Part shown: piece by piece, positions 5,105 through 63,100 of the stretch
Layout: each line of letters opens with the position of its first letter
Numbering within the stretch: position 1 is the first letter of the stretch
DNA from: a virus
Strand: one strand, 5' to 3'
Length of the DNA: 64,000 nt
Virus record (IMG/VR): IMGVR_UViG_3300036770_007621
Position numbers and translations under genes: made by a program
The notes under the pieces: model-generated
Seen by the model: only the letters and a program-made list of their open reading frames with translations
The model's database searches: none
Told to the model about the DNA's origin: nothing

Positions 5105-5121
5105 ATGTTCCTCCAACTTCA

Positions 5122-5130
5122 TATATATCA
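5122..5130 (-). promoter_or_regulatory. Extended -10-like motif TGATATATA
   Basis: 17 nt upstream of the GIY-YIG ATG. Confidence 0.4.
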
Positions 5131-5144
5131 TCAAAATCAAAATT

Positions 5145-11200: not shown

Positions 11201-12971
11201 CTCCGTAACAAGTTTTTTTGCGCATATGGTCACAAAAATCATGTTCTGCTTTAGCTACTCTTCCACAGTCGCTACAAATGGCTCGACCTACTGCCGTACC
11301 CATTGACACACTGGTTTGCATCATAGATGCGACCTTCTTAGCTAAATCTGGATAATTTGCCTTGTCTAGGGCGCATAAAGCAACTACTCTTTTTAAATTG
11401 CGATCATAATATGTATCTACAATAAAACCACGAGTATGATCTACTGAACTAGATTTATGATCAATGCACAATGGCTTATGTACCCATTTTTTATGGGCTT
11501 TTATTAGCTCTTCTTCAGGGAAAATATCGCCGTTGCAGTTAGAAACTACAATCCAGTTAGCTACATAAGAATTGTCTTCCTCTACTTCTAAATTATAAAC
11601 ATCGCCACTATAAAATACTTTTTCTACTCCTAAAATAGAGTGAATACAGTATTGATCAATAAATTTATTTAAATTTTTATTTTTAGAAGTTTTATTAAGA
11701 TTTAATTTTTCTGAGTTTTTAATGATCTTTTGACCATTAGTAGAATTAATTCTTATTCTAAATACATTATGCTTACCATTTATCTCTCTTCCATTAATTT
11801 GAGAAGATGAGGGAGGTGTTTCATAAATAGTATTATGAACTCCTAAGCTATATAACATTAATCTAACTTGAGAAGCTAAATTAGGAGAAATAGTAGTTCC
11901 AGTGATTCTAGCGGTATCTTTTCCTATGCTTCCATCACCTTCTAACCAGCCTAAAATAAATTGTTGTTTTACTTCATCTGAACCGAATACTAATTCAGGG
12001 CTGAGTGTCTTAGTAAGGCTATATTCTCCTACATGATTTAAAAAGAACTTATAAATATCTTTTTGATAAGCAGTTACTGTACATTTATGATTTTTCTCAT
12101 CTACCTTAACAGTAACATTTACATTATTAAATTCTGACTGTAATAGTTGCTTAGTAAGTAAACCAAGTGTATTGTATTCATCAGCCGAATATGTAAAACA
12201 AACAACATTTCTGTGTTTGTTATGAGTTTTGTTTAAACTACCTTCTGCGGCGTATAAGCCTAATAATCTAGCTTGATTCGGCGTAAGATCTGAATCTACT
12301 TTTTTATTTAAATTAATAGATAATAGAAAATCTTTTAAATTTAAATCTTTGGCGGAAACAAATGAAAATTCTTTATTTGTATTTTTTTGATTCCATATTC
12401 TAAATTTAGAAGTAGTAGATTTCCATTTATTGTTAGAAACTTGTAAACGATAAAGTGGATGATTATCAGTAGTAGACAATTTAATATTGTTATTAACATT
12501 AAATTGAAGTAAGTTGTCATGATGAGGAGTAATAAACTTTCTTAATACTTTTTTGGCTCTACCTTTATGGGTAATAACCATATCTCCTGGCTCTACATCT
12601 TCTATGTTTTTAACTGCTCCATTTTCTAAAAGAATTTTGGTTCTTGGAGGAAAACAATTTTTATATGGTTTGATATTTGGATCATTTGTTTGCCAACGCC
12701 AAGTATTACCAGTTTTATCCCAACCTACTTGAACTGCTTCTCCTTTAACATTTAATTTAGGAGTGCCATCTTCATTTAAAGCAGCAGCTTCGGCAGCATG
12801 CATCATAACAGCTGAGAAATAAAGAAAATCATTTGCTTTAGGAGCAATCTTTTTTAAAGCAGATGCAGTTTTTTTAAAACTATCAAGCATTTCTTGATTT
12901 ACAGCAGGAATACAAGAATCTGCATTCTCGATTCTGCTAATTTCGTGAGTTTCGCCTATTTTGATAAACAT
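8223..12971 (-). CDS. Prohead maturation protease fused to a scaffolding domain, intein-containing
   Basis: After removing the intein: N-x-NGDIFPEEEL, WVHKPLCIDH, RGFIVD, TSVSMG, CSDC...CDH (HK97/herpes-type prohead protease pattern), then about 800 aa of low-complexity/coiled-coil scaffold. Confidence 0.8.
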   Translation of the reverse strand: MFIKIGETHEISRIENADSCIPAVNQEMLDSFKKTASALKKIAPKANDFLYFSAVMMHAAEAAALNEDGTPKLNVKGEAVQVGWDKTGNTWRWQTNDPNIKPYKNCFPPRTKILLENGAVKNIEDVEPGDMVITHKGRAKKVLRKFITPHHDNLLQFNVNNNIKLSTTDNHPLYRLQVSNNKWKSTTSKFRIWNQKNTNKEFSFVSAKDLNLKDFLLSINLNKKVDSDLTPNQARLLGLYAAEGSLNKTHNKHRNVVCFTYSADEYNTLGLLTKQLLQSEFNNVNVTVKVDEKNHKCTVTAYQKDIYKFFLNHVGEYSLTKTLSPELVFGSDEVKQQFILGWLEGDGSIGKDTARITGTTISPNLASQVRLMLYSLGVHNTIYETPPSSSQINGREINGKHNVFRIRINSTNGQKIIKNSEKLNLNKTSKNKNLNKFIDQYCIHSILGVEKVFYSGDVYNLEVEEDNSYVANWIVVSNCNGDIFPEEELIKAHKKWVHKPLCIDHKSSSVDHTRGFIVDTYYDRNLKRVVALCALDKANYPDLAKKVASMMQTSVSMGTAVGRAICSDCGRVAKAEHDFCDHMRKKTCYGEINIDLAPIELSIVVNGADPKAHIKHIIAAANTLNTYVENKSNELNKFADVFHASISTQGDQPGDTANFTCESNTLDGFEQEIQNILSQVKQMKENANNGALKTDTQDSNNMMPPGIPQNARYASNNLEDITDLNSINELREVTAAIETKLQLMKNKLNKLANTSNIQEEQHMSGSNFDKRGYFQGGGGVNEPTPGQAKYTKDPLNEDMRMNGDKQMVGQSPFPGVGDVTGLHPSPASSDESDELQRKKMLARAEAEERAMRRTAIVNMAKQALEDKRAYYQGGGGVNEPTPGKVKYPVDSLNMDARSEDKQMVGQKPFPGVGDVNSLHPSPASSDEANELKRKQMLARAGLKARFVKAANLDGTTNFENSGWQVLLGDKLLLTASVRELSGGNTNMMYDSIATKDFGARLLDKVKSYGPDGVRTLVRQAQAAPPALPAPPAPAAPPAAAAPAAPPADMGAAAPAAPAAGEEDVEDEGMKGDPKETALRLSEKVRDLSSDLVEAVRALTGEKAEMGAIEELGKEAPEAGAEVPEAGAEAGGELATAASSFSVSTLNTLRKELNGALTRAMKESIAELNDHYQELGMLSTIHKNGSVNRANKELVNTLASDAFAEAKTAIADGLKLMTAFVKYARGTKALVKRAQMEASLKKTAQRRKAALKKSAQGSESDLADLLNMPLGSGLNENLFTSDESSADDLMSYDDDGDTNDMDSDMVYVDDASKVNDAMSANPGKTVAVKKATAFDTKSGRSALRAKLAADALGKMDDGELHDMSKAEFSDMLDQAHRLTNGQTKLDVKPSDELGLVETVEQRSRKMMDVATAPVKVRKEAEAIARLVSEGKLDTADFPALVAEGLDPAAVKYYKQYYGQVDGGSEFASELVKEHVKAQVEDELNGYRVKLARAYELAHEMVDRGLCVNDSYAVSAQVDEIMKFNDESFQSLKRVVAKHAPTLQKEAGRMPQVGMIGSGEVNTAQSDDWSQLSAAFAKTSKRMF
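10152..10667 (-). repeat. Two ~76-aa direct repeats in the scaffold region (10440-10667 and 10152-10376)
   Basis: DKR-YxQGGGGVNEPTPG...DKQMVGQxPFPGVGDVxxLHPSPASSDExxELxRKxMLARA occurs twice. Confidence 0.9.
11538..12656 (-). mobile_element. Intein (373 aa) with LAGLIDADG endonuclease, in the prohead protease
   Basis: Starts CFPPRTKILL, ends VYNLEVEEDNSYVANWIVVSN followed by Cys+1; LLGLYAAEGS and FILGWLEGDGS motifs. Confidence 0.92.
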
Positions 12972-12978
12972 TATTCAC

Positions 12979-13578
12979 CTATAATATGAGGTTTCTATTT
13001 ATAATAGATAAAAATTCTTCTGAAGTTTTAGTGCCTTTTTGTAAATTGCAAGAGGCGCAAGATGGCACTAAATTACTAATACAATGATTTCCGCCTCTAC
13101 TTAATGGAACTTTATGATCTAAATGCAGATTTATTCCTCGTTTAACAAAAATTTTACAATAAAAACATTGATTGTTATTATTAATTAATAAATTATTAAT
13201 TTCTATTTGACTGATATTTTCTGCATTAATTAACTTTTTTCTTTTATTATTTTTTAATAAAATATATTCTTTATTATTTTCTCTATACTTTTTGTTTTTA
13301 TTTTTAAAATATTCTTTATTGTTTTGATAATAAATTCTTTGTTTTTGCAATCTTTCTTCTCTATGTAAAGCATGTGATTTCTTACAACTATCTCTACATT
13401 TATCTATATTTTTTATATATTGTTGTTTGCGCAATTGCTTAATATGTTCTTTATTTTTTTGAGCATATTCTTTTACACATTGCTTGCATCTTATTGCATG
13501 ATCATCTAAATAAGATTTATTTTTAGAAAATTCTTGTAATTGTTTTAATAAATTACAAGTGCAACATATTTTTTGCAT
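12979..13578 (-). CDS. HNH endonuclease
   Basis: CFYC...LHLDHKVPLSRGGNHCISNLVPSCASCNLQKG; N-terminal CxxC zinc motifs. Confidence 0.92.
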   Translation of the reverse strand: MQKICCTCNLLKQLQEFSKNKSYLDDHAIRCKQCVKEYAQKNKEHIKQLRKQQYIKNIDKCRDSCKKSHALHREERLQKQRIYYQNNKEYFKNKNKKYRENNKEYILLKNNKRKKLINAENISQIEINNLLINNNNQCFYCKIFVKRGINLHLDHKVPLSRGGNHCISNLVPSCASCNLQKGTKTSEEFLSIINRNLIL

Positions 13579-30631: not shown

Positions 30632-33600
30632 TTATGGAGGAGGTGGCGCTTCTCCAGGTGGTGCCCCTAAATCTGGCGGAGGTCCTCCAGGTGGCGCCTC
30701 TCCAGGTAATGGTGCCCCTCCACCTGCACCCTCTTCCACCGGCTCTGGAATCTCGTCTTCCTCATCCAATGCACGCAATGTATTCAAATCCAATGCCGCC
30801 AATGCCGTCTTTTCTTTCTTGGAAATCTCTGATTGAATTGCTTCCTTGCGCATCTTGCGTACCTCATCGTCAAACTCTAATCCCAAAGAATGATACAATG
30901 TATGCAATGATGCCCGCTTCTGATCTCCCTCGCCCTGTGTCAAAGTACTTAATATGTTAATATAATCCCCTGTGTCAAACAAAGACATGTGATTCCATGT
31001 TATCTCAGGTACTATTAACTGCTTCTCTCCACCCGAATAATCATAAAAACCCTGAATCTTAGATATAGGTGCAAAAATCTTTCTCTTCAACCAACTAGAT
31101 AACATGTTCCTAAATTGCATGTACCTTTGACGTAATACATCCAATGCCACACCACCGTTGGCATATGTAGTGTCAGCTCCACCATCCATTATCACAGATG
31201 GTGCCTGTAACCCCGTATAAATCTCTTTGATCAATTGTGTTATGTCCCCAGAAATATCATAAATTCCTGCCCCATAACCCACTCTCTCTACCGTCACTCC
31301 CTCGTGCGTAAATACTTTAAAGTCCTTGTCGTATTGCGCTTCTTCAAAAATATTGCGCCACGCTTCTAAATCAGCAAAAGTAGGCTTGAACTCCGCTGAA
31401 CCTATCTTGACTAGGGTCAATGGATTTATCATATTGTCCGCTTGAGCGTATTTAGAATTGCCTTGAATCGTAATTTTCCCATTGCGTCGGGTCACAAACA
31501 ATCCAGTTGGTACCTCAAAACACCAAACTACACCATTATAGTCTTTTTCTATAATTCTGGCCCCGCCACCATTGTTATTTTTCTTTGGTAAAGAACTAAC
31601 GTTTGGCTCAACTCCATAATTTGTATCTGACCACATAACAATATATTCTGTGACAATTCTTTTATCAGATTTTGCAGCCGTACTAACACAAATATTTGGC
31701 ACATAACCTAACTTATAAACAAGCTCATATACATCGTCAGCTAATTGCTTAGAAACAGTAGAGTATCTATAATTTTTAGATCCAGTACCGTATTTACTAA
31801 ATCCTTCAGTACCATCACCTTTTACTAATGCTTCTAATAAAATAGACATTAATTCTGGTTTTAGTTCAAGTGTCCATCTAGGTAATTTTTTAAAGTGAGA
31901 AGATACTTGGTTATTTGTCCCTAACTCATTTGAAAAATGAGCAACAATATCTTTTCCATGAATTGATACGCTCCAAATTTCTTTAGGAGTCAAAGCAGAG
32001 TATCCTGTTCCTGCGGTTTTAATAAAATGATTTGCTTTTTTACCCATAAAAGTTGCAAATTTAGAAAATGCATCTTTCATATCTTGATAACAATCGCTAG
32101 AAGTTAATTGATTAACAGAAATAATTGCATCATATCTTCCGTTTTCAAAATTAGAATAAATACATCCTTCAGATGCCAAATAACCTAATACTTTTAAATA
32201 TAAGTCTGTAGGAATATTATGCCCACAAACATTAATTGATTCAGGATCATTAGTTAAATTAAAATTAGCTTTAGAGCTTAATTTGTAACCCTTCTTTTTA
32301 CTTAAAAGAGAGGATGCTGTTCTTTTCTGAAAATTACCCCATTTTCCATTAGTGCTTTCTTTTACCCACATCTTGTGGTTAGGTGTAACTAAACAGTCTA
32401 CTTTTTTACCAGTAAAATGAAGCATCTTGCCTTCGTAATGCGACATGTGCATCTCAATTGGCGCGTGATACTCTACCTGATTGTTTTGCGGATTCACACA
32501 TGCCACTTTGAACCCCTCTTTCATTGACAGTATTTTAATACTGTCTGGGCTCAAGTTTTTACTGTCTTGGTTCATATTTTTACTGTCTAGGTTCAATAAA
32601 ACGCCATTAACAAAATTTGAATTAACGTTAATATCTGAGGTAAAATGCAGTAAATCAGTGATTTTCTTGAATCCTTTGTCGGTTAGAACCTCTGTGTCTT
32701 CATCGTAACACTCCCTTAATTTATCAAATAACATAAGCTGCCTGAACACACACACAGGCAGACCGGTTCCTCTAATTTCGTATGGGCTAATTTTTCTGGC
32801 CAAGTGGGAGATATTATAATTTTCCAGCGGGATATTATCTCCACGTTTCACGGAGTCGATGATATGTTGATTTAGTTGTTTTTTCTGTTCGATATCGGCG
32901 GGTTTATTGGAGAAGATAATTTTCTTTAAATTTTCATCAGGGCGGAGCATGATGAGGGGTTCATCAGCGATGACGGTGCGTTTGACGACCATGTAGTCTG
33001 GGTTTTGGATTAGTAATCGATCCCATTTACCTTTAGTTTCATTTAATTCTGCGTAGATGAAGGATTCACCTAGTAGCCAATATTCTTGGGCTATTTGAAC
33101 GCAGATATTCATTAGATTAAGTTCTTCGATCATATCGTTGAAGAACTTTTCAATTTCTTTGTTAGGGCATTTGATGTTCATTTTGCTGATGGGGTAAGTA
33201 CTATGTAGATTGATAGCATTATGAACAAAAGGATTTAAAGCATAAAAGCTTCTGCACCAAGCATTAATAGTGGCACGGTCTCTTGGAAGATTAAGATTGC
33301 TATTAAGCCATAGAGGAGAATAGACTTCAGGAGTTTGTTTAACAGAGTCTCCATTACCTCCACGGAAGCCTCCACCTGTACCAACGACTTGACCTACTTT
33401 TTTAAAACCGATAGAAGAGACTACGTTTGAATTTTGGGTAGGAGTATAATTTTTAGATGGGGTAGCGGATCCATCACGAAAGAATCCTTGTTCTACTTCA
33501 TTGGCGAGATTATCTCTTCTAGATTGAGAGACACTTTGAGCCATGAGGGCACTGACTTGAGGGACTTGAGATTTATTTTGTAGATATTGTTCAGAATTTG

Positions 33601-33640
33601 ATGGACCTGTCCAAATCTTACCATTTTTTGAAATTGACAT
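30632..33640 (-). CDS. Portal protein, intein-containing
   Basis: Adjacent to the terminase; RKISPYEIRGTG portal-like motif; about 584 aa after intein removal; acidic/Pro-rich tail. Confidence 0.75.
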   Translation of the reverse strand: MSISKNGKIWTGPSNSEQYLQNKSQVPQVSALMAQSVSQSRRDNLANEVEQGFFRDGSATPSKNYTPTQNSNVVSSIGFKKVGQVVGTGGGFRGGNGDSVKQTPEVYSPLWLNSNLNLPRDRATINAWCRSFYALNPFVHNAINLHSTYPISKMNIKCPNKEIEKFFNDMIEELNLMNICVQIAQEYWLLGESFIYAELNETKGKWDRLLIQNPDYMVVKRTVIADEPLIMLRPDENLKKIIFSNKPADIEQKKQLNQHIIDSVKRGDNIPLENYNISHLARKISPYEIRGTGLPVCVFRQLMLFDKLRECYDEDTEVLTDKGFKKITDLLHFTSDINVNSNFVNGVLLNLDSKNMNQDSKNLSPDSIKILSMKEGFKVACVNPQNNQVEYHAPIEMHMSHYEGKMLHFTGKKVDCLVTPNHKMWVKESTNGKWGNFQKRTASSLLSKKKGYKLSSKANFNLTNDPESINVCGHNIPTDLYLKVLGYLASEGCIYSNFENGRYDAIISVNQLTSSDCYQDMKDAFSKFATFMGKKANHFIKTAGTGYSALTPKEIWSVSIHGKDIVAHFSNELGTNNQVSSHFKKLPRWTLELKPELMSILLEALVKGDGTEGFSKYGTGSKNYRYSTVSKQLADDVYELVYKLGYVPNICVSTAAKSDKRIVTEYIVMWSDTNYGVEPNVSSLPKKNNNGGGARIIEKDYNGVVWCFEVPTGLFVTRRNGKITIQGNSKYAQADNMINPLTLVKIGSAEFKPTFADLEAWRNIFEEAQYDKDFKVFTHEGVTVERVGYGAGIYDISGDITQLIKEIYTGLQAPSVIMDGGADTTYANGGVALDVLRQRYMQFRNMLSSWLKRKIFAPISKIQGFYDYSGGEKQLIVPEITWNHMSLFDTGDYINILSTLTQGEGDQKRASLHTLYHSLGLEFDDEVRKMRKEAIQSEISKKEKTALAALDLNTLRALDEEDEIPEPVEEGAGGGAPLPGEAPPGGPPPDLGAPPGEAPPPP
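31457..32710 (-). mobile_element. Intein (418 aa) with LAGLIDADG endonuclease, in the portal
   Basis: Starts CYDEDTEVLTDKGFK, ends VWCFEVPTGLFVTRRNGKITIQGN followed by Ser+1; VLGYLASEGC and LLEALVKGDGT motifs. Confidence 0.92.
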
Positions 33641-48685: not shown

Positions 48686-49021
48686 TTAAATATCTTGCGG
48701 TTTTTTTAATTGTTCTAATAGCATGATTTTAAAGGGCTGACTAAGATGCGAATGCAATGCTTTACATTTAGGGCAAATTACTTCTTTATTTTGAATTTGG
48801 GGACGCTCTTCTATATTACAATTTTTGCATTTAACTGCAAAAGAAATTGTTTTTTTAGGTCGATATTGCTTAAATTGTTTCATTTGCATTTTAATAAAAT
48901 GCGTAATATTGTTTAATTCTCTCTCACATTTAGAGCAATATACTTTATCTGTAGCTGGATCTAAGTATGGTTCCATTAAGTCTCCACAACCACGATTTGA
49001 GCAAACTATAGAAAATGGCAT
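48686..49021 (-). CDS. Small four-CxxC zinc-finger protein
   Basis: CSNRGC, CSKC, CKNC, CPKC in 111 aa. Confidence 0.75.
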   Translation of the reverse strand: MPFSIVCSNRGCGDLMEPYLDPATDKVYCSKCERELNNITHFIKMQMKQFKQYRPKKTISFAVKCKNCNIEERPQIQNKEVICPKCKALHSHLSQPFKIMLLEQLKKPQDI

Positions 49022-49953
49022 TAAGCGTCCTTATTTTGTAATAAATTAATGATTTGATCTGTATTTTGTGGATATTCCACTTCTAGATAAACTTTTTGAT
49101 TACCTTTTTTATTTACTCCTAGATTAGGAATTATTACTACGTCTTTGTTTTTAGACAAGGGCTTAATATTAATTTCTTTCTCATCTAACACTGTAGGAAC
49201 TACTTTTGCACAGCCTTGCAATGCCTCCAATAAAGAAATTTTAAGATAAGAAATTACATCTGATCCTTCTAAAGACAAATTAGTATTATTTTCCACATGA
49301 ATATACAGATGTACGTCACTAGACTGATCTAGTCCCATAAACTGACCGACATAGTTTCCCATACCAGCTAGTCTAAGAATATTGCCATCAGACACCCCTC
49401 CAGGAACAGAGACATGAATATTACACTCAGAATCTAAAGAACCTTCTCCTTTACAAGGAGAACATTTTTCTGTTTTAGTCTTACCCATGCATTTGTCGCA
49501 TGTTTGCACAAAAATCATCTGACCACGAGAAACAGTAATTTGCCCTCTTCCTTTACATTTGTCGCAGCCATTGTTTAATTTAATGAGACCATCTCCGTCA
49601 CAAGAATTGCATTTTGTTTTTCTAGAATAAGAAATATTCTTTTTTGTCCCTAATACTGATTCTTGGAAAGAAATAGTAGTTTGAATAGAGATATGCTGAG
49701 GGACAGCTTTTACTCTACCACCAAATGGATTAAATCCTGAAAACCCAGAAAATAAAGAATCAGGTTCTGGTTCATCGCCTTCTTTGATTCTAGTGTAAGC
49801 TTCATTTATTTTTTTAAATTTAGCATCAGCATCTGGCTCTTTATTTACATCTGGATGATATTTCCTAGTTAGCTCTTTATATTTCTTTTTTACTTCTTCT
49901 TCTGTTGCCTGATTTGATAAGCCAAGGGTAGAATAGGCTTCTTTTAAATTCAT
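49021..49953 (-). CDS. dnaJ: Type I DnaJ co-chaperone
   Basis: J domain with HPD, short G/F region, four CxxCxGxG-type repeats, C-terminal substrate-binding domain. Confidence 0.92.
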   Translation of the reverse strand: MNLKEAYSTLGLSNQATEEEVKKKYKELTRKYHPDVNKEPDADAKFKKINEAYTRIKEGDEPEPDSLFSGFSGFNPFGGRVKAVPQHISIQTTISFQESVLGTKKNISYSRKTKCNSCDGDGLIKLNNGCDKCKGRGQITVSRGQMIFVQTCDKCMGKTKTEKCSPCKGEGSLDSECNIHVSVPGGVSDGNILRLAGMGNYVGQFMGLDQSSDVHLYIHVENNTNLSLEGSDVISYLKISLLEALQGCAKVVPTVLDEKEINIKPLSKNKDVVIIPNLGVNKKGNQKVYLEVEYPQNTDQIINLLQNKDA

Positions 49954-51656: not shown

Positions 51657-52004
51657 TCATTTCACTAATGTTTGCATTTTATTTGCGTTGAAAACTAAAC
51701 TTCTGATGCTGTGTACCCTGTGCCAGGGGAACCACATGTCTAGTATAAGTTCCTTAGGAGTCTGTGTCAACAGGTCGTTAAATGTTTTAATTATCTCTTC
51801 GTCTGATAATTCTGAAAAGAATCCTTTTGCTAAAATAAAACCATTCTGTGAGTCTGGCTTATCTATAGAAATAAATTTTTGATATGTAGTGCCTGATTTC
51901 CCACCGCTAGAATGAGATAGCGATACTAAATAAATAGGTTTTTTATTAATAGCCCCAACTGTAGGAATGGTAGCTACGCCAATTGAAAAATCTTTATCCA
52001 TCAC
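51657..52004 (-). CDS. Hypothetical protein
   Basis: 115 aa ORF coupled to the recA stop. Confidence 0.7.
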   Translation of the reverse strand: MMDKDFSIGVATIPTVGAINKKPIYLVSLSHSSGGKSGTTYQKFISIDKPDSQNGFILAKGFFSELSDEEIIKTFNDLLTQTPKELILDMWFPWHRVHSIRSLVFNANKMQTLVK

Positions 52005-53161
52005 TTTACCTTTCTTTTCTTTTTGCTATCTTCGTCTTCTTCTGATTTATTTTTTAATGCTTCTTGTTCTTGTCGTTTTGTTTCCCATTTCACATCACGA
52101 GCTTCTGAAATTTTTTGAACTAACTCTTCTGCTAAGGCAGGATCCTCTTTAATAGCTTCACAGAACTTTCCAAATCCAACCCATTTCTTATCACCATATT
52201 CATGTGTAACAGATGTTGGCTTGCTAACCACATTATAATCTAATGCTAGTTGTGCAATCTCTTCATGACGATCAATTACTCCAATTCCAAAGTCTACTTT
52301 AAATTCACATTTTTTTGGCCAAGCACAAAATTTTGATTTTTCTGTAGTTGCTCTTATGGTATGACCAATCTTATTATCTTTTTCATCTAAAATCATTGCA
52401 TCTTTTCTCATCACCGCTTCAAAATATAAATTGGCTGAAAGAAAGTGAGCATATGTATTTCCGCCAGAGAAAGTATGATCAGAGCCATAAGGATCCATAT
52501 TGTCTCTTTTATGATTGATAACTAAAAATGGAACATTAGCTTTATTTACTTCTAAAGCAAGCTTCTTAAATGTTGTAGTTAAGAATCTTGCCATTAGTGC
52601 CATGTTAGCTTTTCCAACAGCAGCTACATCCTCTCCTGGAGGAATTACGGCACCTAATGAATCTAGAATAATAAGATTTACATCTATTTCTTTAGAAACA
52701 ATCTTATCTAAGAGACCCTCTTTCTTTTTACCAACTAAAGCATGGGTTCTAGCATCTTCTTTGGGCTCTCCTAATAACATCTCGAAGCAACGACGACCGT
52801 TAACTGCTAAATCGCCATCAACGATAATAACTCTAGAAGTATCCAATCCTAGTTGCTCTGCCCACTCAACGTTAAATGTATTTTCTGCATCAATAAATAC
52901 TTGTTGAGACTCAGAGTTGAGTTGTTGCGCCTCTTTCATTGCCAACATAGCTAATAAGCTTTTGCCAGATCCAGGAGGTCCATATAATTGGATAATCCTG
53001 CCTAAAGGATATCCGCCACAACCTAGAATTTCATCCAATAATAGTGATCCGGTAGGGACTGATTTTAATTTGACATTTAACCTATCTTTTGCGACTTGAT
53101 AATTTAATTGCTCATCTGAGTTTGCATAACTTTTAAAAAATGCATCTAGTTTACTTGACAT
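52001..53161 (-). CDS. recA: RecA-family recombinase
   Basis: PTGSLLLD, GRIIQLYGPPGSGKS, FIDAEN, IILDSLGA, SGGN motifs. Confidence 0.95.
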   Translation of the reverse strand: MSSKLDAFFKSYANSDEQLNYQVAKDRLNVKLKSVPTGSLLLDEILGCGGYPLGRIIQLYGPPGSGKSLLAMLAMKEAQQLNSESQQVFIDAENTFNVEWAEQLGLDTSRVIIVDGDLAVNGRRCFEMLLGEPKEDARTHALVGKKKEGLLDKIVSKEIDVNLIILDSLGAVIPPGEDVAAVGKANMALMARFLTTTFKKLALEVNKANVPFLVINHKRDNMDPYGSDHTFSGGNTYAHFLSANLYFEAVMRKDAMILDEKDNKIGHTIRATTEKSKFCAWPKKCEFKVDFGIGVIDRHEEIAQLALDYNVVSKPTSVTHEYGDKKWVGFGKFCEAIKEDPALAEELVQKISEARDVKWETKRQEQEALKNKSEEDEDSKKKRKVK

Positions 53162-53233
53162 ATTTTCTTACTCCAAATAGACGTTGTGTCCGACAGTATA
53201 TACCCCACATTTGCAGGTTTTAAATATAAAAAA

Positions 53234-56200
53234 TTACTCAACAACACTTGCCCAAGAATCTATTCTTGTTACTTGTCTTGGTGCTGGTATCGCCCTAGTA
53301 ACAGTATTGGTTTTTGAATTATCAACGTTCTGACCAGTACTCACTGTTTGAAAACTTAACTGAAAAGATGTACTGCTAGCATTAGATACAGCAATCTTAC
53401 TACCTAAATACGGATCATTAAATACTTGAGTCTCTATACAAGTAGGAATTTGATTTAAAGATATTCCAAATATTAATGTCCCGTCTGGCTGCTTTACATT
53501 AGTTACATATCCTTGTGATAAATCATTAGGATCTACTGCGTACCTAGCTACTGGACCTCCATTGCTAGAAGCTAAGTAATCTACTCCCCAAATAGAACCA
53601 TAACCAATAGAACAAGCATTGCTATTATTTACTAAAGGAGAATAAGTAGAAAAATATACAATCCCATTAAATAAAACTAAATTTCCAGTTACTCTAGATC
53701 CATTATTTAATGGCTGTACCCAATTTTCAGAAACTTTAACAGTTGAATTAACTATAGATTCTTTTAATGACCATACTCGATTTACAGCCTGATCTCCATT
53801 GCTTAATTGTAATTGCTCTCCTGTAGTAAATAAAATTATATTATTTCCAAAAGAATCTACACTAACAATAGGCGCAGTATGAATCGCTTCCCCAGATAAA
53901 TAATTATCTGTAGGTAAAGAGTAAGCATCCCAAATTAAATCTGCGCTCCATAATTGAGGATCTGAGCTAGAAACATCTATTCTCCACAGAGATCCATCTG
54001 CATCTCCTACATAAATTTTAGAAGCTACTTGCCCTGTTTGAGATGGATATGCTACTGGAATTCCTGTAATAGGAGAATCAAATGGCACTACTTTCGACTT
54101 ACCCGCAGCAACTAAACCTGGAGGTCCTTCTGCATCAGAGCCTCTAAAGTTCATTAATACTTCTCCAGTATCTAGTCTAACAATAGTCAATGATCTGCCA
54201 GGACCTTCTTGACCATTGTTTTGCCAACACTTGACAGACCCCCGCACTCCATAAGATTCTTTAGGATTAAAGATAGTATAAGGCTTTGGCTGGCGATTGC
54301 AAGCCCCTGCTGCTAGGGGCGACTCTCCGCCTGATAAAATACCTACAGCTATTTCTTTAATTTGACCACTGCTGTCTTTAATAGATAAATTAGCAATTGT
54401 AGGAGTAGGGGATGTTCTTCCAAATAATTTATTTCCATTTACATCAGTAGATAATTGCCACAAAAATTTAGGATTAACTGGATCTGTTACATCTAAGGCA
54501 TAATAAAATCCACCGGCAGGACCACCACCTGCTAACAATATGCTATTCCAAACTGACCCATTATTTGATGCCTCAATAACATTTTTCTCATACACTACAT
54601 CTTTTACAATTGGCGAGCCATCTAATAATATAGATTGCTGATTAAAAGAGCCTAATAAACGAGGTAATACAATTGGAGGAATAAAGCTCCATAATTCATT
54701 ATTTTTTAATAAATCTACTTTTAATAAGTCATTGTTATCATTTGCTGAAACTTTAAAAGCATGTAGTTGACCATCTGTAGTTGCCGTGTATAACATTAAT
54801 GGTCTTTTGCTTTGAGTAACTGCAAAATTTGCGTATGACTCGTCTCTTAAATATTCTTTAGGAGTTCCAGTTACAAAAGGAGTAGAATGATAAATAGATC
54901 CTAATTCGCTACAAGTAGAATTAGCTGGGCAAAAAGCGGGTTCTCTAGTCAAAAAAAAACCTGGTGTAGTTTCTCCTACATTCCAACGAATTAATCGTAA
55001 AGCACATTCTGTAGCACTATCAGTTAAAAACTGATCGCACAAATTAGGTACATTCAACGGATCAATATTTAATGCTTTTAAATTATTTAAATTAGATAAT
55101 TGTGTGGAGAAGCTTTGACCATTTAATGGACCAATAATATTTCCAAAAGTAATACCTAAACCATCATTACTTAATAAATTTGGTCTAGCACTTCTATCTG
55201 AAAAAATATTAACACCCGTATTATTAATATAAGTAATAAATTTTCTTGGATTAGCTATGTCATTAGAATTAATATTCGAAGCAAAATCATCTCCCTTTAA
55301 TGGATCTACAGGGTTAATAACTGTTTGTAATACTCCATTTTGAGAAGAACAAGTATACCTTTTTCTATCTAAATTGCCCTGCCATAATCCAGTGCCTCCA
55401 GGAATAGAGAATGAGGACCCAAATTGATAACCAATAGCTGGTGCATTAGATAAGGAATTAGATGTAACTGTAGCAGAAGAAAAAACTGGCAATGTTCTAC
55501 TAGTAGAAGTATTAGTGATATTGGATAATACAGAAGATAAAACAGATTTTAATGAACCAAGATTATCTGCAAAATATGCTTTTTCTGTGCCGCCATTATA
55601 AGCAATTCTATGTAAATTACAACAAGCTTTTAATGTGCCAGATGCAGTAGTACAAATCCCATTAGCAGAAAAAGCAGTTACAGGATCTACCTGGCTACAA
55701 TCAAAACCTGCCCCTGATGCTAAACCAAATCCTACTGCAAAAGTTTTAACTTGCTGGTTAATATTCAAATCTTTAGCTAATTCATATGCAATTTGTTCTG
55801 GCAATGAATAAGGGCATTTGCCTCCAGGAGCAGCGCATTCAGGTCGTAAATCTAAATTAGGCTCTCCATCAGAAAGTACGATAATGTAATTTTTTCTACA
55901 TCCACCTAAAACATATGGATCAAAAGATGGACTAATTGGTTTATTATCAAGATCTTTAGAAAGATCTAATTTAAAATATCCTTGAGCGTCTGACAACATA
56001 CCAGCTAAAGGCGTAGCTCCATAAGGTCTCATGGCGAGCAATGCAGTTTGAATGAACTCTGTTCTAGCTTTAGAATTAGTTGGAGATTCATCAAATGGTC
56101 CAAATGGTACAAATCTACCTTCCCATGGAGGAGCTGCCTGATTACGGGCGCCTACTTCTAATTTTTTAGGAGAACATCCTGCTGGATTACCGCTAGCAAA

Positions 56201-56854
56201 CACTCCTCCATTACCCCAATTAGCGTAATAACTCCACAATCCATTCATACCAGAACTAATAGAATAATCAGGTCCATTAGATCCTGTAGATGAGTCTGGA
56301 GAAGTATCAAATGTCATTAGTCCAAATCTAGCTCTATCTCCAAATACGTCTAAAATTCCATCATAAGATGGTTTGAAAGCGCCAGGCGAACATAATTTGT
56401 TTAAATCATTATATGGATGAATTCTAAAAGCATTGCTTGGAACTGGCCAAGTTAGCCAAGAAAAGGGCAAAATACCAGGACCTAGAGCACAAATGTTGCC
56501 TGCACTATCTTTGGACAAAGGTCGATGATAAGATAAACTATATGGCTCATCGTAAGGCTCTACACTATTAATAGAATATTCTGCCTTAAAAGAAGATGTT
56601 GTTCTTTTTAGTTCTTGGCATGAATAATTATCAAGAGTTCCGTTCAAGACTGTAAGTAAGGTTGCCCAACGATTTAATGGAGTAGTAACTCCAGGATTGC
56701 ATTTAGGCAAAGAATTATCAATCATTCTTTCCATGGACCCAGAACTATCTACTAGCAATAGTACATTAGGCATGGGAGGATTAATATCTGATTGAGCGAA
56801 AGCATTAGAAGAATAACAGATAATAAATAAAATTAGTAATAAATACTTTTTCAT
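53234..56854 (-). CDS. pilY1: PilY1/PilC-type type IV pilus tip adhesin (signal peptide, vWA, beta-propeller)
   Basis: Signal peptide MKKYLLLILFIICYSSNAFA; MIDAS VDSSGSM, GATPL, LSDGEP; propeller motifs DGQLHAF, ELWSFIPP, LDGSP, YYALDVTDP, YVGDADGSLWRID. Confidence 0.85.
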   Translation of the reverse strand: MKKYLLLILFIICYSSNAFAQSDINPPMPNVLLLVDSSGSMERMIDNSLPKCNPGVTTPLNRWATLLTVLNGTLDNYSCQELKRTTSSFKAEYSINSVEPYDEPYSLSYHRPLSKDSAGNICALGPGILPFSWLTWPVPSNAFRIHPYNDLNKLCSPGAFKPSYDGILDVFGDRARFGLMTFDTSPDSSTGSNGPDYSISSGMNGLWSYYANWGNGGVFASGNPAGCSPKKLEVGARNQAAPPWEGRFVPFGPFDESPTNSKARTEFIQTALLAMRPYGATPLAGMLSDAQGYFKLDLSKDLDNKPISPSFDPYVLGGCRKNYIIVLSDGEPNLDLRPECAAPGGKCPYSLPEQIAYELAKDLNINQQVKTFAVGFGLASGAGFDCSQVDPVTAFSANGICTTASGTLKACCNLHRIAYNGGTEKAYFADNLGSLKSVLSSVLSNITNTSTSRTLPVFSSATVTSNSLSNAPAIGYQFGSSFSIPGGTGLWQGNLDRKRYTCSSQNGVLQTVINPVDPLKGDDFASNINSNDIANPRKFITYINNTGVNIFSDRSARPNLLSNDGLGITFGNIIGPLNGQSFSTQLSNLNNLKALNIDPLNVPNLCDQFLTDSATECALRLIRWNVGETTPGFFLTREPAFCPANSTCSELGSIYHSTPFVTGTPKEYLRDESYANFAVTQSKRPLMLYTATTDGQLHAFKVSANDNNDLLKVDLLKNNELWSFIPPIVLPRLLGSFNQQSILLDGSPIVKDVVYEKNVIEASNNGSVWNSILLAGGGPAGGFYYALDVTDPVNPKFLWQLSTDVNGNKLFGRTSPTPTIANLSIKDSSGQIKEIAVGILSGGESPLAAGACNRQPKPYTIFNPKESYGVRGSVKCWQNNGQEGPGRSLTIVRLDTGEVLMNFRGSDAEGPPGLVAAGKSKVVPFDSPITGIPVAYPSQTGQVASKIYVGDADGSLWRIDVSSSDPQLWSADLIWDAYSLPTDNYLSGEAIHTAPIVSVDSFGNNIILFTTGEQLQLSNGDQAVNRVWSLKESIVNSTVKVSENWVQPLNNGSRVTGNLVLFNGIVYFSTYSPLVNNSNACSIGYGSIWGVDYLASSNGGPVARYAVDPNDLSQGYVTNVKQPDGTLIFGISLNQIPTCIETQVFNDPYLGSKIAVSNASSTSFQLSFQTVSTGQNVDNSKTNTVTRAIPAPRQVTRIDSWASVVE

Positions 56855-56860
56855 AAATCC

Positions 56861-57865
56861 TCACTTATCGGCATAAGAGAATACTTTGTCTAATGACATT
56901 CCTTTGGTTTCTTCTACTAATTGTAGATTTTTCAGAATATTCATTCTTACTTCTTCATCTGGTGGACCTACTTCTTTCACAAATCTAAATCTAGAGGGTC
57001 GGCTTTTGATAGAATCATCTATTTTAGTAATATCATTAGCTGTCATAATAAACATAACTTGTTTATAATCATTATGAACGCCATCTAATGCATTAATAAA
57101 AGAATCAAAAGTAAATTTAACTTGATCATTTTTCATAGCACATTCTCTACCATGAAAATAATTATCAAAGTCCTCCATTAAAACAATACATCTTTGAGGA
57201 ATAGTAGAGAACATTAAAGAAATATCTAAGTTATTGTATTCAGGATTTAAATACACTATGTATATGGGCAAGCAGTATTTTTTGCTTAAATACTTAACAA
57301 ACTGTGATTTACCATTACCTGGAGGACCGTATAACAAACATCCTGTTTTTCTTTTTTTACCAGACAAAACTAATTTTAAATCTTCTTCAATGTCTTGATA
57401 AATTGATTTAGACAAATAAATATTAGGATTAGATTCGCAAATCAGCTGCCCTAATCTATCAGATCCTCTTGGCACTAAAGCCATGATAGAAATAGTACTA
57501 TCATCTTGATCTGAGCCATCTAACATATTATCAATTTTGCTTCTTTGCCATCTTGGAAAAATAATATAAGAAACACTTTCTTTACTTTCCCAACCAGTAG
57601 TTAGCAATCTTTCATTTTTACCAAAATAAAAAAAACAGCCATTTAAAAAAACTAAAGCTTCATATATTTCTGGATATTTAGGATCTTTTACTTTATCCTT
57701 AGATAAGACCCAAGCTTTAGAATTATTTTTTTTAATTTTATTAATTAATTTTTTACTTATTTCATTATCTAGTCTATAATTATTTAAAATTAGATACTTA
57801 AATACAGCCCAGCTAGAAACAAGAATTGTGCTAACAATACCAATAATAGTTAAAAAACTATTCAT
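56861..57865 (-). CDS. Membrane-anchored AAA+ ATPase (BCS1-like)
   Basis: N-terminal hydrophobic helix; GPPGNGKS, LMEDFD, MTAN...RPSRF. Confidence 0.85.
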   Translation of the reverse strand: MNSFLTIIGIVSTILVSSWAVFKYLILNNYRLDNEISKKLINKIKKNNSKAWVLSKDKVKDPKYPEIYEALVFLNGCFFYFGKNERLLTTGWESKESVSYIIFPRWQRSKIDNMLDGSDQDDSTISIMALVPRGSDRLGQLICESNPNIYLSKSIYQDIEEDLKLVLSGKKRKTGCLLYGPPGNGKSQFVKYLSKKYCLPIYIVYLNPEYNNLDISLMFSTIPQRCIVLMEDFDNYFHGRECAMKNDQVKFTFDSFINALDGVHNDYKQVMFIMTANDITKIDDSIKSRPSRFRFVKEVGPPDEEVRMNILKNLQLVEETKGMSLDKVFSYADK

Positions 57866-59599: not shown

Positions 59600-59608
59600 T
59601 ATATATCA
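59600..59608 (-). promoter_or_regulatory. Extended -10-like motif TGATATATA
   Basis: Overlaps the dnaE stop; 18 nt upstream of the next ATG. Confidence 0.4.
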
Positions 59609-62600
59609 ATCATCTTCTTGTTCAGAATCTAAATCAATTAATCCCTGATCATAAAGATTGTTTTCTATTTCTTCCAATAAAGAAGATGCTGGCTTATCCA
59701 TTTCTTTTTTAGCATCTTTCAAAGATACTTTTTTAGATTTTAAATCTTCTGGCAAAGAAGGAGGCGGGGCTACATTATACATCTTTTCAAAAATAATACC
59801 AAGCTCTTGCTCATATATATTAGCCGTTCCAGAAAAATGAATACCCAAACCAACATCAAAAACTACTTTGTTATGCACCTTCTTTAAGTATTTTTGAAGA
59901 TCTGCCCACCTATCAGGAAAAATTGTCAAACTACAACGATCCCCATTTCTATCTTCAATTGTAGCCTTAATCATAGGCTGACCATAATATTTACTAGTCT
60001 CTTTCTTAACCTTAAATTCAAAAAAATCTTTGACAATTCCTTTCATAGAAGGTAATGGCGTTTTTTCTTTTGCATTTTTTAATTGCCTAATCACAATATG
60101 ATCATCTTTAAAGAAACTACCATATGCCACTGGCGGCTTACATACAAATGACTCGCCCATATAAAATTGCTCTAATGCATATTTTTCAGCAATACTCCAG
60201 TCTAATTCCTTTGACCATGGATAAATAAACTCTTCCTTAGATGGATCATGCTTTTTGCACCATACCTGTAGTTTCTTCCTGTAATCCGATACATACAAAA
60301 ACATAAGCTTGCGAGGTAAGTTGAAACAATCCATCGCCCCAGATGCAATCAATGCCTGTATATTGTTAGCTCGTACTTTCTTAGAATCTACCCTAACCAT
60401 AAAATCAAAGAAATTAGTAAAAGGTCTCTTCTCTACAATATCATTAATAGCCTCATCACCAACAAACTTCAATGCATCCAAACCAGTAATTAATTGATTC
60501 TCGCCTACAATAGAATATTGTAACTTAGATTTATTAATGTCTGGTGGTAAAATCTTAATCTTATTGGCTCGTAACTCCGATTTAATACGCTCAATATTAA
60601 CTTTAGCGTCTGGAGTATTAGACTTTACCTCTGCCATCAAGTTGGCTAACAAAAATTCAACAGGATAATGAGCTTTTAAATAGGCCGTCTTGTAAGAAAC
60701 CATAGAATATAAAACTGCGTGAGCCGCGTTGAACCCATACGAATTGAAGCCACTTACGACATCTATCCATATCCTCTCGGCAATATTTTCATTAATACCA
60801 TTCTTTACAGAATCTTCGATAAACTCCATTTTCCACTGTTGAACCTTCTTAGGATTCTTACCTTTTTCTTTAGTAAGTTTTCTAAGGCGATCCGCAGAAT
60901 GAAGACTCCAACCAGCTATGTCCTGAGCCAAATACATAAGACACTCTTCATATAAGCCAAACCCATAAGTATTAGCGAAGGCTCGTTTTAAATTAGGGTG
61001 TAATAATATTATAGGCTTCTTACCATCTCTGACTTTAATAAAATCATCTCGCATATCGCGAGCAGAAGGGCGAGCTAAGGCGTTAATGTTGGCTAGATCA
61101 TTGATACTTCTAGGCTTGATTCTCTTACACAAATCTACTGTTCCACCAGAAGTACCGAACTGGAAGACGGCAAAAGTATCACCTTTAGAAATTAGTTCAT
61201 ATGTTTTCTCATCATATTCTTCATAGTCTAAACTATCTGGGGGCAAAGGCTTACCTTGTTCTTTAATCAAGCGATAAGTCTCACCGATAATATCTAAGGT
61301 TGACAAGCCAAGAGTATCCATCTTGACCAATCCATTTTCTTCTGCTTTATCTTTATCATACTCTAGTGCTAGAGCACCATCTTTATCTCGGCGTAGTGGA
61401 ACCAAACCAGTAAGAGGTCTGGCAGAAATAATAATACCTCCAGCGTGGGTAGACCAAGCACGATATTTACCACAAATATCTTTGTACTTTAAGAACTCTG
61501 GATATTTCTTACAATACTCGGCAAAGAGTGGTACTTTTTCATAAGCATCATCAATAGAATGAATATCTGATGGAATACAATCTGCTACGTCGTTACCTAA
61601 TTTAATAGCTTCTTCTCTGGAGCCGCCTAGCTCACAGGCTCTAGAAATATCTCGAACATATACTTTTGGAGTGATGGTGTTAACGTTGGAGACGTGGGCA
61701 ACATGATCATCTCCGTATTTATGACGAAGATAGTTTTGAACCTTCTCCCTTCCAGAAGGAGCAAAGTCTAGGTCTATGTCTGGAAAGCTGCTCTTTTCTT
61801 TATTATGGAATCTGGCAAAGATAAGATTGTATTTAATAGGATCAGCTTGATGGATTCCTAATAGATAAGCGATTAAGGAGCCACCGACTGAGCCACGACC
61901 TTCACCTACTGGGATATTGTTCTTTCTGGCCCAGTTAACATAATCGGCAACGATTAGCATATAGCTAGAGAAGCCATGATATTCTAATACATCTAGTTCT
62001 TCATTGATTCTGTCGAGATAGAGAGATTTTTCTTCATCGGAAGAAAATTTAATACGAGGGAATTTATTTTCACAGGCAAAGCGAAGATATTGTTTATCTT
62101 CGGATAGTTGTTGGACAAATTCTGGTTGAGAGGAAGACCATTGTAAGAATTGTGGATAATCTAATTCATCTTTAACGGGAAAGATAGGAAGTTCTTTACC
62201 GGAGGGATTAGAGTATTTAGGATCGATCCAGTTGGGAATTTCGCACATATCAGCGAAGTGTATAGTATTTTGGCAGATTTGGGTGGCAAATTCTTCACCA
62301 TAGTTTCTTGAGAAGAAGTTTTTAACTTCCTCACCGGATTTGAGGTAGAAATCTGGTACTGGATATTTGAGGCGAAAATTGGAATATCTGGGCTGATGAG
62401 ATCCGATAGAAAGAAGAACATCATGGATATCATGATCTTCTTTATTTAGATAGTGGGCATTGCAGGCGGGGACGATTTTTACATCATGTTTTTTAGCCAG
62501 TTCAATAAGTCTACGGTTAAGGAATTGTTGATCAATTTCGTCATTATAGACATTGGAGCCACGTTTCATGTTATTGGGCTGAACTTCTACGCCTAATTTA

Positions 62601-63100
62601 TCTTGGAAGATTTCTTTTAATTTTAAGAGTGTACGTTCAGCTTCATCAAATTTACCTTTGGTGAGTAATTGGCTGATGATACCATTACCGCAGGCGGTGA
62701 GGCAGATAAGACCTTCTGAATAAGTTTGAAGTAGGTTCCAATCGATGACGGAATAGACTCTTTTACCGGAAAAGGAGTTATGATCGAAGCCTTTTTTGTT
62801 TAAGGTAAGTAGATTTCTATATCCAATAGCATTAGTTGCTAATAATACTAAATGTCTGAATTTATCTTCTGGATTTTTATTATCATTTTGAAAATAGCAT
62901 TCGCAGCCAATAATTAGTTTAACATTGGTATCTTTGGAGACTTTATAGGCTTCCCAGGCGGAGGCGAGGGTACCATGGTCGGTGATAGCGATGGCTGGAT
63001 AATCTAATTGTTTAGCTTTATTGAACAGGTTTTTGACGGAGATGGTAGAATCTAGGATAGAGTAATCGGTTTGATTATGTAGGCTTACGAAAGGTGTCAT
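59606..63100 (-). CDS. dnaE: DNA polymerase III alpha subunit (family C)
   Basis: PHP domain (AITDHG, GCECY, HLVLLA), GRGSVGGSL, SFPDIDLDF, STHAGG, KMDTLGL, YGFNAAHA. Confidence 0.97.
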   Translation of the reverse strand: MTPFVSLHNQTDYSILDSTISVKNLFNKAKQLDYPAIAITDHGTLASAWEAYKVSKDTNVKLIIGCECYFQNDNKNPEDKFRHLVLLATNAIGYRNLLTLNKKGFDHNSFSGKRVYSVIDWNLLQTYSEGLICLTACGNGIISQLLTKGKFDEAERTLLKLKEIFQDKLGVEVQPNNMKRGSNVYNDEIDQQFLNRRLIELAKKHDVKIVPACNAHYLNKEDHDIHDVLLSIGSHQPRYSNFRLKYPVPDFYLKSGEEVKNFFSRNYGEEFATQICQNTIHFADMCEIPNWIDPKYSNPSGKELPIFPVKDELDYPQFLQWSSSQPEFVQQLSEDKQYLRFACENKFPRIKFSSDEEKSLYLDRINEELDVLEYHGFSSYMLIVADYVNWARKNNIPVGEGRGSVGGSLIAYLLGIHQADPIKYNLIFARFHNKEKSSFPDIDLDFAPSGREKVQNYLRHKYGDDHVAHVSNVNTITPKVYVRDISRACELGGSREEAIKLGNDVADCIPSDIHSIDDAYEKVPLFAEYCKKYPEFLKYKDICGKYRAWSTHAGGIIISARPLTGLVPLRRDKDGALALEYDKDKAEENGLVKMDTLGLSTLDIIGETYRLIKEQGKPLPPDSLDYEEYDEKTYELISKGDTFAVFQFGTSGGTVDLCKRIKPRSINDLANINALARPSARDMRDDFIKVRDGKKPIILLHPNLKRAFANTYGFGLYEECLMYLAQDIAGWSLHSADRLRKLTKEKGKNPKKVQQWKMEFIEDSVKNGINENIAERIWIDVVSGFNSYGFNAAHAVLYSMVSYKTAYLKAHYPVEFLLANLMAEVKSNTPDAKVNIERIKSELRANKIKILPPDINKSKLQYSIVGENQLITGLDALKFVGDEAINDIVEKRPFTNFFDFMVRVDSKKVRANNIQALIASGAMDCFNLPRKLMFLYVSDYRKKLQVWCKKHDPSKEEFIYPWSKELDWSIAEKYALEQFYMGESFVCKPPVAYGSFFKDDHIVIRQLKNAKEKTPLPSMKGIVKDFFEFKVKKETSKYYGQPMIKATIEDRNGDRCSLTIFPDRWADLQKYLKKVHNKVVFDVGLGIHFSGTANIYEQELGIIFEKMYNVAPPPSLPEDLKSKKVSLKDAKKEMDKPASSLLEEIENNLYDQGLIDLDSEQEDD

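Follow-up and report, generated by a model that had tools for sequence, protein, structure and literature searches.

Why would a bacteriophage carry the gene for a bacterial pilus-tip adhesin? This question is raised by a 64,000-nucleotide (nt) stretch of viral DNA, hereafter the window, from the IMG/VR record IMGVR_UViG_3300036770_007621, in which an open reading frame (ORF) on the minus strand (53234..56854; pilY1) encodes an intact PilY1 protein of 1206 amino acids (aa), here termed P0001, amid genes for DNA replication. Type IV pili (T4P) are major phage receptors, and they drive motility, adhesion and predation in myxobacteria, whose family Polyangiaceae is important for natural products and for soil and freshwater ecology. 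To our knowledge, almost no phages are known for the Myxococcota and hardly any for the Polyangiaceae, and the takeover of a pilus part by a phage has so far been demonstrated only for the minor pilin FimU of Pseudomonas prophages. Our reading of the locus, to which we assign a rough probability of 0.45, is that a virulent, widespread family of freshwater and subsurface jumbo phages infects Polyangiaceae, has captured PilY1 at least twice and expresses it to re-tip the T4P of the host. If true, P0001 and its phage relatives would be the first case of a PilY1 encoded by phages and would point to a phage-phage or phage-host arms race at the pilus tip. A phage with a whole 1200-aa tip adhesin and primer would also extend the FimU principle to a key tip component, to virulent jumbo phages and to Polyangiaceae.

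The window encodes a full-length PilY1

The window gene is almost certainly a functional phage pilY1 in identity. Its 1206 codons contain no internal stop, and P0001 aligns over its full length with more than 100 PilY1 homologues at 42-78% identity. It matches the PilY1 beta-propeller model PF05567 (aa 667-822; 33.3 bits versus a curated cut-off of 28.1), and a family profile built from the window protein and 57 homologues (58 sequences) retrieved one solved protein, Pseudomonas aeruginosa PilY1 (PDB 3HX6, expect value (E) 6.4e-16). The same entry ranked first when an AlphaFold2 model of P0001 aa 22-1206 (predicted local distance difference test score (pLDDT) 84.7, predicted template modelling score (pTM) 0.85) was compared with the PDB by Foldseek (E 1e-14, template modelling (TM) score 0.56 by target). 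P. aeruginosa PilY1 (PA4554; C-terminal domain in 3HX6) shares the design of a von Willebrand factor A (vWA) domain at the N-terminus plus a propeller and is the best solved-structure match, yet its identity to the window protein is only ~15%. The presumed position of the P. aeruginosa calcium loop reads FDSPITGxPV in the family and lacks acidic ligands.

At the N-terminus, a putative type I (Sec) signal peptide (aa 1-20; 56795..56854, minus strand, as for all parts of the gene) was judged by eye from the translation and reads MKKYLLLILFIICYSSNAFA, followed by QSD. It consists of MKK, 12 hydrophobic residues and a predicted cleavage site between AFA and QSD, which aligns with the site of bacterial homologues (A-x-A before the cut, Q(-x-D) after it). 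The vWA domain with its Cys-rich inserts (aa 22-455; 55490..56791) was delimited by the AlphaFold2 model, Foldseek and invariant motifs. Its metal ion-dependent adhesion site (MIDAS) reads DSSGS (D36-x-S38-x-S40; aa 36-40, nt 56735-56749), an SDGE motif lies at aa 328-331, and both DxSxS and SDGE are invariant across the 58 sequences. A separate AlphaFold2 model of the N-terminal 434 residues (m05ffb8706c84; pLDDT 80.8) was matched by Foldseek to the vWA pilus adhesins PitA and SpaC as well as to BatB, vWF-A3, CMG2 and integrin I domains; unlike this fold comparison, the Pfam vWA models gave no match to P0001.

According to the secondary structure of the model, the vWA domain is followed by a beta-rich middle region with a helical linker (aa 456-650; 54905..55489), which a sliding window identified as the part with the lowest phage-bacterial conservation. 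The C-terminal PilY1 beta-propeller (aa ~651-1206; 53237..54904), assigned by Pfam and by the profile and fold matches to 3HX6, ends in the motif RIDSWASVVE (nt 53237-53266), which closes the protein and is kept in phage and bacterial copies. Mature P0001 contains 21 cysteines, 19 of them conserved family-wide. The initial annotation, made from the sequence alone, had described a full-length PilY1 with signal peptide, vWA MIDAS, Cys-rich inserts and propeller, and the PF05567 and 3HX6 matches together with the vWA fold bear this description out; the alternative of a tail-associated vWA protein without the propeller is excluded by the propeller itself. Within the PilY1 family P0001 is unremarkable; new are the phage as carrier, the long time over which the gene has been retained, and the fact that capture happened more than once.

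Phage PilY1 copies are nested within Polyangiaceae

A homologue search of 5.8 billion clustered proteins revealed phage relatives of P0001 in seven clusters, namely P0002-P0007 at 65-78% identity and P0008 (97%, a fragment). The contigs that carry them (10-274 kb, GC content 33-51%) share PrkA (82% identity), a DCC1-like protein (86%), an AAA ATPase (52%), a cupin (56-65%) and other genes with the window genome. P0009 is the closest bacterial homologue of P0001 (58% identity); below it follow more than 100 proteins at 42-52% identity, of which the named ones belong to Sorangium, Polyangium, Minicystis and metagenome-assembled genomes (MAGs) of Polyangiaceae. With each GTDB species represented by one genome, a scan yielded 80 loci, all from Polyangiaceae, Polyangiales or Myxococcota and with a GC content of 55-74%. 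The genes for P0009, P0013 and P0014 (GC 69-72%) each lie after four minor-pilin-like genes with N_methyl matches and before gcvTHP, which is the classical fimU-pilVWX-pilY1 arrangement; the P0009 operon (minor-pilin-pilY1-gcvTHP) has a GC content of 72%.

Two trees, built from 120 and 93 sequences, placed the phage copies in one clade (support 100) that was sister to P0009 (support 100), and this pair was nested several nodes deep in the Polyangiaceae. The sister position to P0009 makes the phage gene an orthologue of the chromosomal pilY1 of minor-pilin operons. The simplest history would be that an ancestor of the phages captured the gene once from a Polyangiaceae host and passed it on by vertical descent, with phage GC drifting between 33% and 50% after the capture. 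The myxobacterial link that had been proposed from the look of the protein is narrowed by the homologue search and the trees to Polyangiaceae as the donor.

Comparison with the bacterial proteins showed the same Cys pattern and C-terminal motif in the window protein as in the Polyangiaceae orthologues (Sorangium, Polyangium, Minicystis), and its identity to Polyangiaceae proteins is 42-58% over the full length. Myxococcus xanthus PilY1.3, a vWFA paralogue (Treuner-Lange et al. 2020, PMC7541494), and its Polyangiaceae orthologues likewise combine signal peptide, vWA-MIDAS and propeller. Unlike Myxococcota pilY1, the phage copy stands alone among replication genes, without fimU-pilVWX, and its GC content at third codon positions (GC3) is 0.17 compared to 0.83-0.96. 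A further gene for a product of ~180 aa follows bacterial pilY1 (L009:13669-14193, L011:11299-11865 and, on the opposite strand, L010:14218-14757); the L009 product has a lipoprotein-like N-terminus, and the phages left this gene behind.

A second PilY1 type in the same phage family

Four more members of this phage family are present in IMG/VR as contigs L016-L019 (up to 278 kb, GC 44-47%), which share with the window genome the AAA ATPase at 55%, the cupin at 59% and PrkA/SpoVR/DUF444 at 64-81% identity. All four encode a PilY1 of ~1414 aa (L016:10001-14134 and L019:8875-13014; also in L017 and L018) that is 29-30% identical to P0001, and the surroundings of this second type (cupin, AAA, ATP_bind_3, prkA) resemble the first-type loci in the contigs L004 and L013. 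The second type is sister (support 100) to the PilY1 of a Polyangiaceae MAG with 67% GC (L097), and the L097 locus shares nothing with the phage besides pilY1. Constraining both phage types to one clade cost 393 log-likelihood units and was rejected by the approximately unbiased (AU) test (p 0.0012), with the caveat that the two phage groups were named only after the first tree was seen.

These trees indicate that Polyangiaceae PilY1 was captured at least twice independently in this phage family and that one allele was replaced by another. Two captures or replacements from one bacterial family are the strongest available argument that the phages infect Polyangiaceae and need a PilY1 that fits the host, and the finding makes it possible to predict a concrete host for this large family of uncultivated phages.

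Purifying selection acts on the whole phage gene

Compared to the 95% identical copy in L014, the ratio of nonsynonymous to synonymous substitution rates (dN/dS) of the P0001 gene was 0.042 in the vWA domain, 0.016 in the middle region and 0.075 in the propeller. These values were as low as those of the neighbouring recA, AAA and single-stranded DNA-binding protein (SSB) genes, and three bacterial pilY1 orthologue pairs gave values above those of the phage pair (0.09-0.31). A dN/dS comparison among phage homologues, suggested earlier as a check on the locus, accordingly returned purifying selection (0.02-0.08). The more distant copies (L015, L001/L004, L016/L019) were left unused for dN/dS because their synonymous sites are saturated, and a middle-region value of 0.87 (synonymous rate dS 0.23) from a distant-copy comparison was discarded as unreliable.

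We defined as conserved those 217 positions that are the same in 95% or more of 113 bacterial homologues, and 201 of these are identical in all seven phage copies. The phage consensus differs at three conserved positions (N265T, R946K and D1013E), all conservative or near-conservative exchanges. All conserved cysteines are retained in the phage copies, phage-specific insertions and deletions span 1-5 residues, and the C-terminal end R-I/V-D-S-W-A-x-V-x-E is near-invariant across the family, phage copies included. A seemingly phage-specific Cys pair at aa 642/648 was rejected, as the bacterial sister lineages have this pair too. These patterns point to strong purifying selection on the gene since its capture. 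Phages spanning 33%-50% GC have kept pilY1 under strong selection and replaced it at least once by another host allele.

A phage PilY1 may re-tip host pili

A type I signal peptide directs the export of PilY1, which together with minor pilins primes the extension of type IVa pili; PilY1 resides at the pilus tip with its variable N-terminal (vWA) domain outermost, and M. xanthus has three interchangeable pilY1/minor-pilin clusters (PMC7541494). In the 361-kb record, minor pilins were absent, as PF07963 (N-methyl motif) had no match and tblastn with 14 bacterial-operon proteins (12 minor pilins and two downstream-gene products) found nothing below E 0.25. Neither are cognate minor pilins encoded with the phage pilY1. 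The sole match to PF00437 (PilB/PilT) in this genome was a sub-threshold P-loop and was rejected as a pilus ATPase. The initial annotation had seen no other pilus genes in the window, and none were found there or in the rest of the record. Because the phage encodes no pilins, its PilY1 could only work by joining the minor-pilin complex of the host.

Based on these sequence comparisons, we lean towards a phage PilY1 that docks on the minor pilins of the host and serves as a functional pilus tip or primer. For this, pilY1 would be co-transcribed with the replication genes, its translation would be coupled to that of the AAA gene upstream, and the protein would be exported by Sec and oxidised in the periplasm. 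It would then dock on the FimU-PilV-PilW-PilX priming complex of the host via its conserved propeller and C-terminal end, so that the pili of infected cells would be primed and tipped by the phage vWA adhesin, replacing or joining that of the host. The most likely pay-off would be an altered tip that shields infected cells from tip-binding competitors or from progeny of the phage itself while pili still function; nearly as likely would be the upkeep of pilus-dependent adhesion, motility or predation through a long infection. Superinfection exclusion as the purpose of the phage PilY1 is suggested by analogy to known systems and, taken by itself, is rather unlikely. The phage copies would in addition be natural divergent PilY1 variants for studying docking on minor pilins.

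The closest precedent is the prophage-encoded FimU (P-FimU) of P. aeruginosa F10-like phages, which is incorporated without impairing pili and blocks tip-binding phages (Sztanko et al. 2026, PMC12952977). PilA-like genes occur in non-temperate phages, virulent phages express exclusion proteins early, and the T4P components surveyed in phages comprise homologues of FimU and PilA but none of PilY1 (PMC12952977). The phage genome studied here likewise encodes a homologue of a structural component of host T4P, of the P-FimU/P-PilA kind. As in the case of P-FimU, whose demonstrated function is to replace the host part and to exclude tip-binding phages, this is a phage-borne homologue of a T4P tip component. 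P-FimU is a ~160-aa minor pilin of prophages, whereas P0001 is a 1200-aa non-pilin adhesin from a virulent-looking jumbo phage with a presumed host in another phylum. Aqs1 (DMS3) and Tip (D3112) are phage T4P inhibitors whose outcome is superinfection exclusion (PMC13436744). They are phage-encoded and target host T4P, as proposed here, but both are small, cytoplasmic and directed at the PilB motor, and they share neither sequence, location nor mechanism with a PilY1 that is secreted and structural.

Beyond these precedents, tblastn of P0001 against INPHARED (50,697 deposited phage genomes) gave no PilY1 match, and BFVD contained generic propellers only and no PilY1-like protein. In INPHARED, the terminase and DnaE had only relatives below 34% identity and no close cultured relative. 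A full-text literature search with PilY1 and phage terms returned papers on FimU, PilA-like proteins and Aqs1, and none on a phage-encoded PilY1. It had been proposed at the outset that the phage swaps the pilus tip, to exclude other phages or to reprogram motility. This idea appears compatible with the evidence and gains plausibility from the whole-length purifying selection, the retained docking motif and the second independent capture.

Several observations weigh against a re-tipping phage of Polyangiaceae. Three further prkA loci of the wider phage family were inspected and have no pilY1 within 10 kb, so pilY1 is an accessory gene there. No RNA run is among the sequencing runs listed for the pilY1 stretch. 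We infer the Polyangiaceae host from gene ancestry alone, and the phage has a GC content of 33% compared to 55-74% at all Polyangiaceae loci fetched. Against this last objection, phiKZ on Pseudomonas is a case of such a phage-host GC gap, and large gaps occur in jumbo phages; low-GC freshwater Polyangiaceae are a better match for the relatives, with their 44-51% GC, than for the 33% GC phage. With a nearest bacterial homologue of 58% identity, the fit of the phage PilY1 with the minor pilins of its present host is assumed, and for the same reason the PilY1 of the true host may not yet be sequenced.

Alternative explanations

Instead of serving as a working tip, an over-made PilY1 might be a dominant-negative plug that titrates minor pilins or jams the pilus machine and in this way switches pili off, with the gain that superinfecting phages are excluded and progeny are not trapped on infected cells or debris. 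Such a role would suit a phage that brings PilY1 without the four partner minor pilins and conserves the docking end, and phage strategies that disable T4P are known, e.g., Aqs1 (PMC13436744). A plug would require the docking propeller alone, yet the vWA domain, MIDAS and disulfide cysteines are equally constrained (dN/dS 0.042 vs. 0.075), and the 201 of 217 conserved positions are retained without phage-specific losses, which renders the plug improbable. We prefer a working tip or primer to a plug, since the outward adhesin domain shows no less constraint than the one that docks. Still less probable is a role outside the pilus, either as a free exported vWA protein with an adhesive or signalling role in the periplasm, in the outer membrane or outside the cell, for example in surface sensing or c-di-GMP signalling as for P. 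aeruginosa PilY1, or as a virion-associated adhesin. PilY1 has been reported in membranes, at the cell surface and in supernatants besides pili (PMC7541494), vWA domains and propellers are general adhesion modules, and BFVD contains many phage propeller proteins. None of the BFVD proteins, however, is similar beyond the generic propeller (TM <=0.18), and the strict conservation of the C-terminal end and of the whole propeller, which faces the minor-pilin complex in the M. xanthus model, speaks for the pilus. A virion adhesin would be at odds with the cleavable Sec signal peptide and the periplasm-type disulfide pattern, which are unlike a cytoplasmically built virion part, and with a gene that lies among replication rather than structural genes.

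Finally, pilY1 could be a passenger or an artefact, that is, a chimeric join, a mis-binned bacterial fragment or a recent gene drifting to loss. The last ~13 kb of the record have a foreign composition (GC 50-60%), so the contig is not uniformly clean, and IMG/VR labels the record 'provirus'; yet this odd end lies ~180 kb away from pilY1. The order AAA-pilY1-recA recurs in two independent assemblies from other samples, in L014 (95% nt identity; AAA-pilY1-recA-...-ruvC-dnaJ-primase) and in L015 (77% nt identity; 172aa-AAA-pilY1-recA), so that both junctions that a chimeric assembly would have had to create are found elsewhere. Moreover, three runs of one subsurface study, which may be the source sample, contain 100% of the sampled 31-mers across 52600-57600 and hence across both junctions. 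The composition is fully phage-like, with a GC content of 35.2% in pilY1 compared to 32.9% in its flanks and a GC3 of 0.168, next to 0.176 in AAA, 0.217 in recA and 0.96 in the nearest bacterial gene; this agrees with the earlier view of a gene as AT-rich as its neighbours, whose compositional amelioration suggests long residence. AAA stop and pilY1 start are joined by a common Shine-Dalgarno sequence, and a dN/dS of 0.02-0.08 argues against a drifting passenger. The L014 pilY1, called at 752 aa, was considered as a pseudogene and rejected, since the break is merely a 100-N scaffold gap (L014:1532-1631). An artefact or passenger is on these grounds very improbable.

Gene neighbourhood and phage genome

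As initially described, pilY1 sits in a replication module between recA and an AAA ATPase gene. On the same strand, DnaE (59606-63100), three small ORFs, the AAA ATPase, pilY1 and UvsX/RecA follow each other, and beyond UvsX/RecA lie an SSB-like gene, RuvC and DnaJ-like and primase-like genes. The upstream AAA ATPase (334 aa; 56861..57865, minus strand; PF00004, phrog_7485/2376) is a core gene of the phage family that is also found near pilY1 in the relatives; it is 52-55% identical to the copies in L004, L013 and L016 and 89% identical to that in L015. A GAGGA Shine-Dalgarno sequence, read from the sequence 3 nt before the pilY1 ATG (56858..56862, minus strand), overlaps the TGA stop codon of the AAA gene, and only 6 nt separate this stop from the pilY1 start. 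No terminator-like site was found between the two genes, and they are probably co-transcribed. Downstream, a 72-nt gap separates pilY1 from the UvsX/RecA recombinase gene (52001..53161, minus strand; PF00154, phrog_97). No mobile element abuts pilY1, as had been noted before.

The source record comprises 361,490 bp with 33% GC and a CheckV completeness of 97%, and its phage markers include terminase, UvsX, DnaE, RuvC, inteins and homing endonucleases. Neither a tyrosine integrase nor a serine recombinase was found in the 361-kb record, and the phage for this reason looks virulent. Expression of pilY1 from a prophage, i.e., lysogenic conversion, is not indicated, given the lack of an integrase and the position of the gene in the replication module. 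The IMG/VR tag 'provirus' probably stems from the foreign-looking last ~13 kb of the record (G000:C1 ~348,000-361,490; L008:7000-20000), where GC rises from ~33% to 50-62% and coding density is poor. This end might stem from a chimeric join or be flanking DNA of host or eukaryote-like character. It holds short, broken-looking ORFs with one clear gene, for a MYG1/UPF0160 exonuclease (PF03690, E 6e-76), and is directly preceded by two tRNA-Leu genes.

Farther from pilY1, the window encodes a large terminase of the gpA type and several homing endonucleases, and some of its genes contain inteins; its load of selfish elements is high. Hint/intein and LAGLIDADG matches lie within a 1582-aa ORF (8223-12971, minus strand), and another LAGLIDADG match lies within a 1002-aa ORF (30632-33640, minus strand). 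Free-standing LAGLIDADG, GIY-YIG and HNH endonuclease genes are located at 5882-6709 (plus strand), 3932-5140 (minus strand) and 12979-13578 (minus strand). The DnaJ-like gene of the replication module (49021-49953, minus strand) lies between the RuvC and primase-like genes, and the annotation of its L014 counterpart lists a J domain, DnaJ_C and CXXCXGXG.

Elsewhere in the phage genome, a prkA-spoVR-DUF444 (yeaH-like) operon is located on the minus strand (G000:C1:263165-267840; L100:1165-5840). More than 120 PrkA protein clusters at 79-100% identity were found on metagenomic contigs of up to 371 kb, and the prkA operon seems characteristic of a large, widespread and uncultivated jumbo-phage family. 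Several of the prkA contigs additionally encode GroEL and ClpP.

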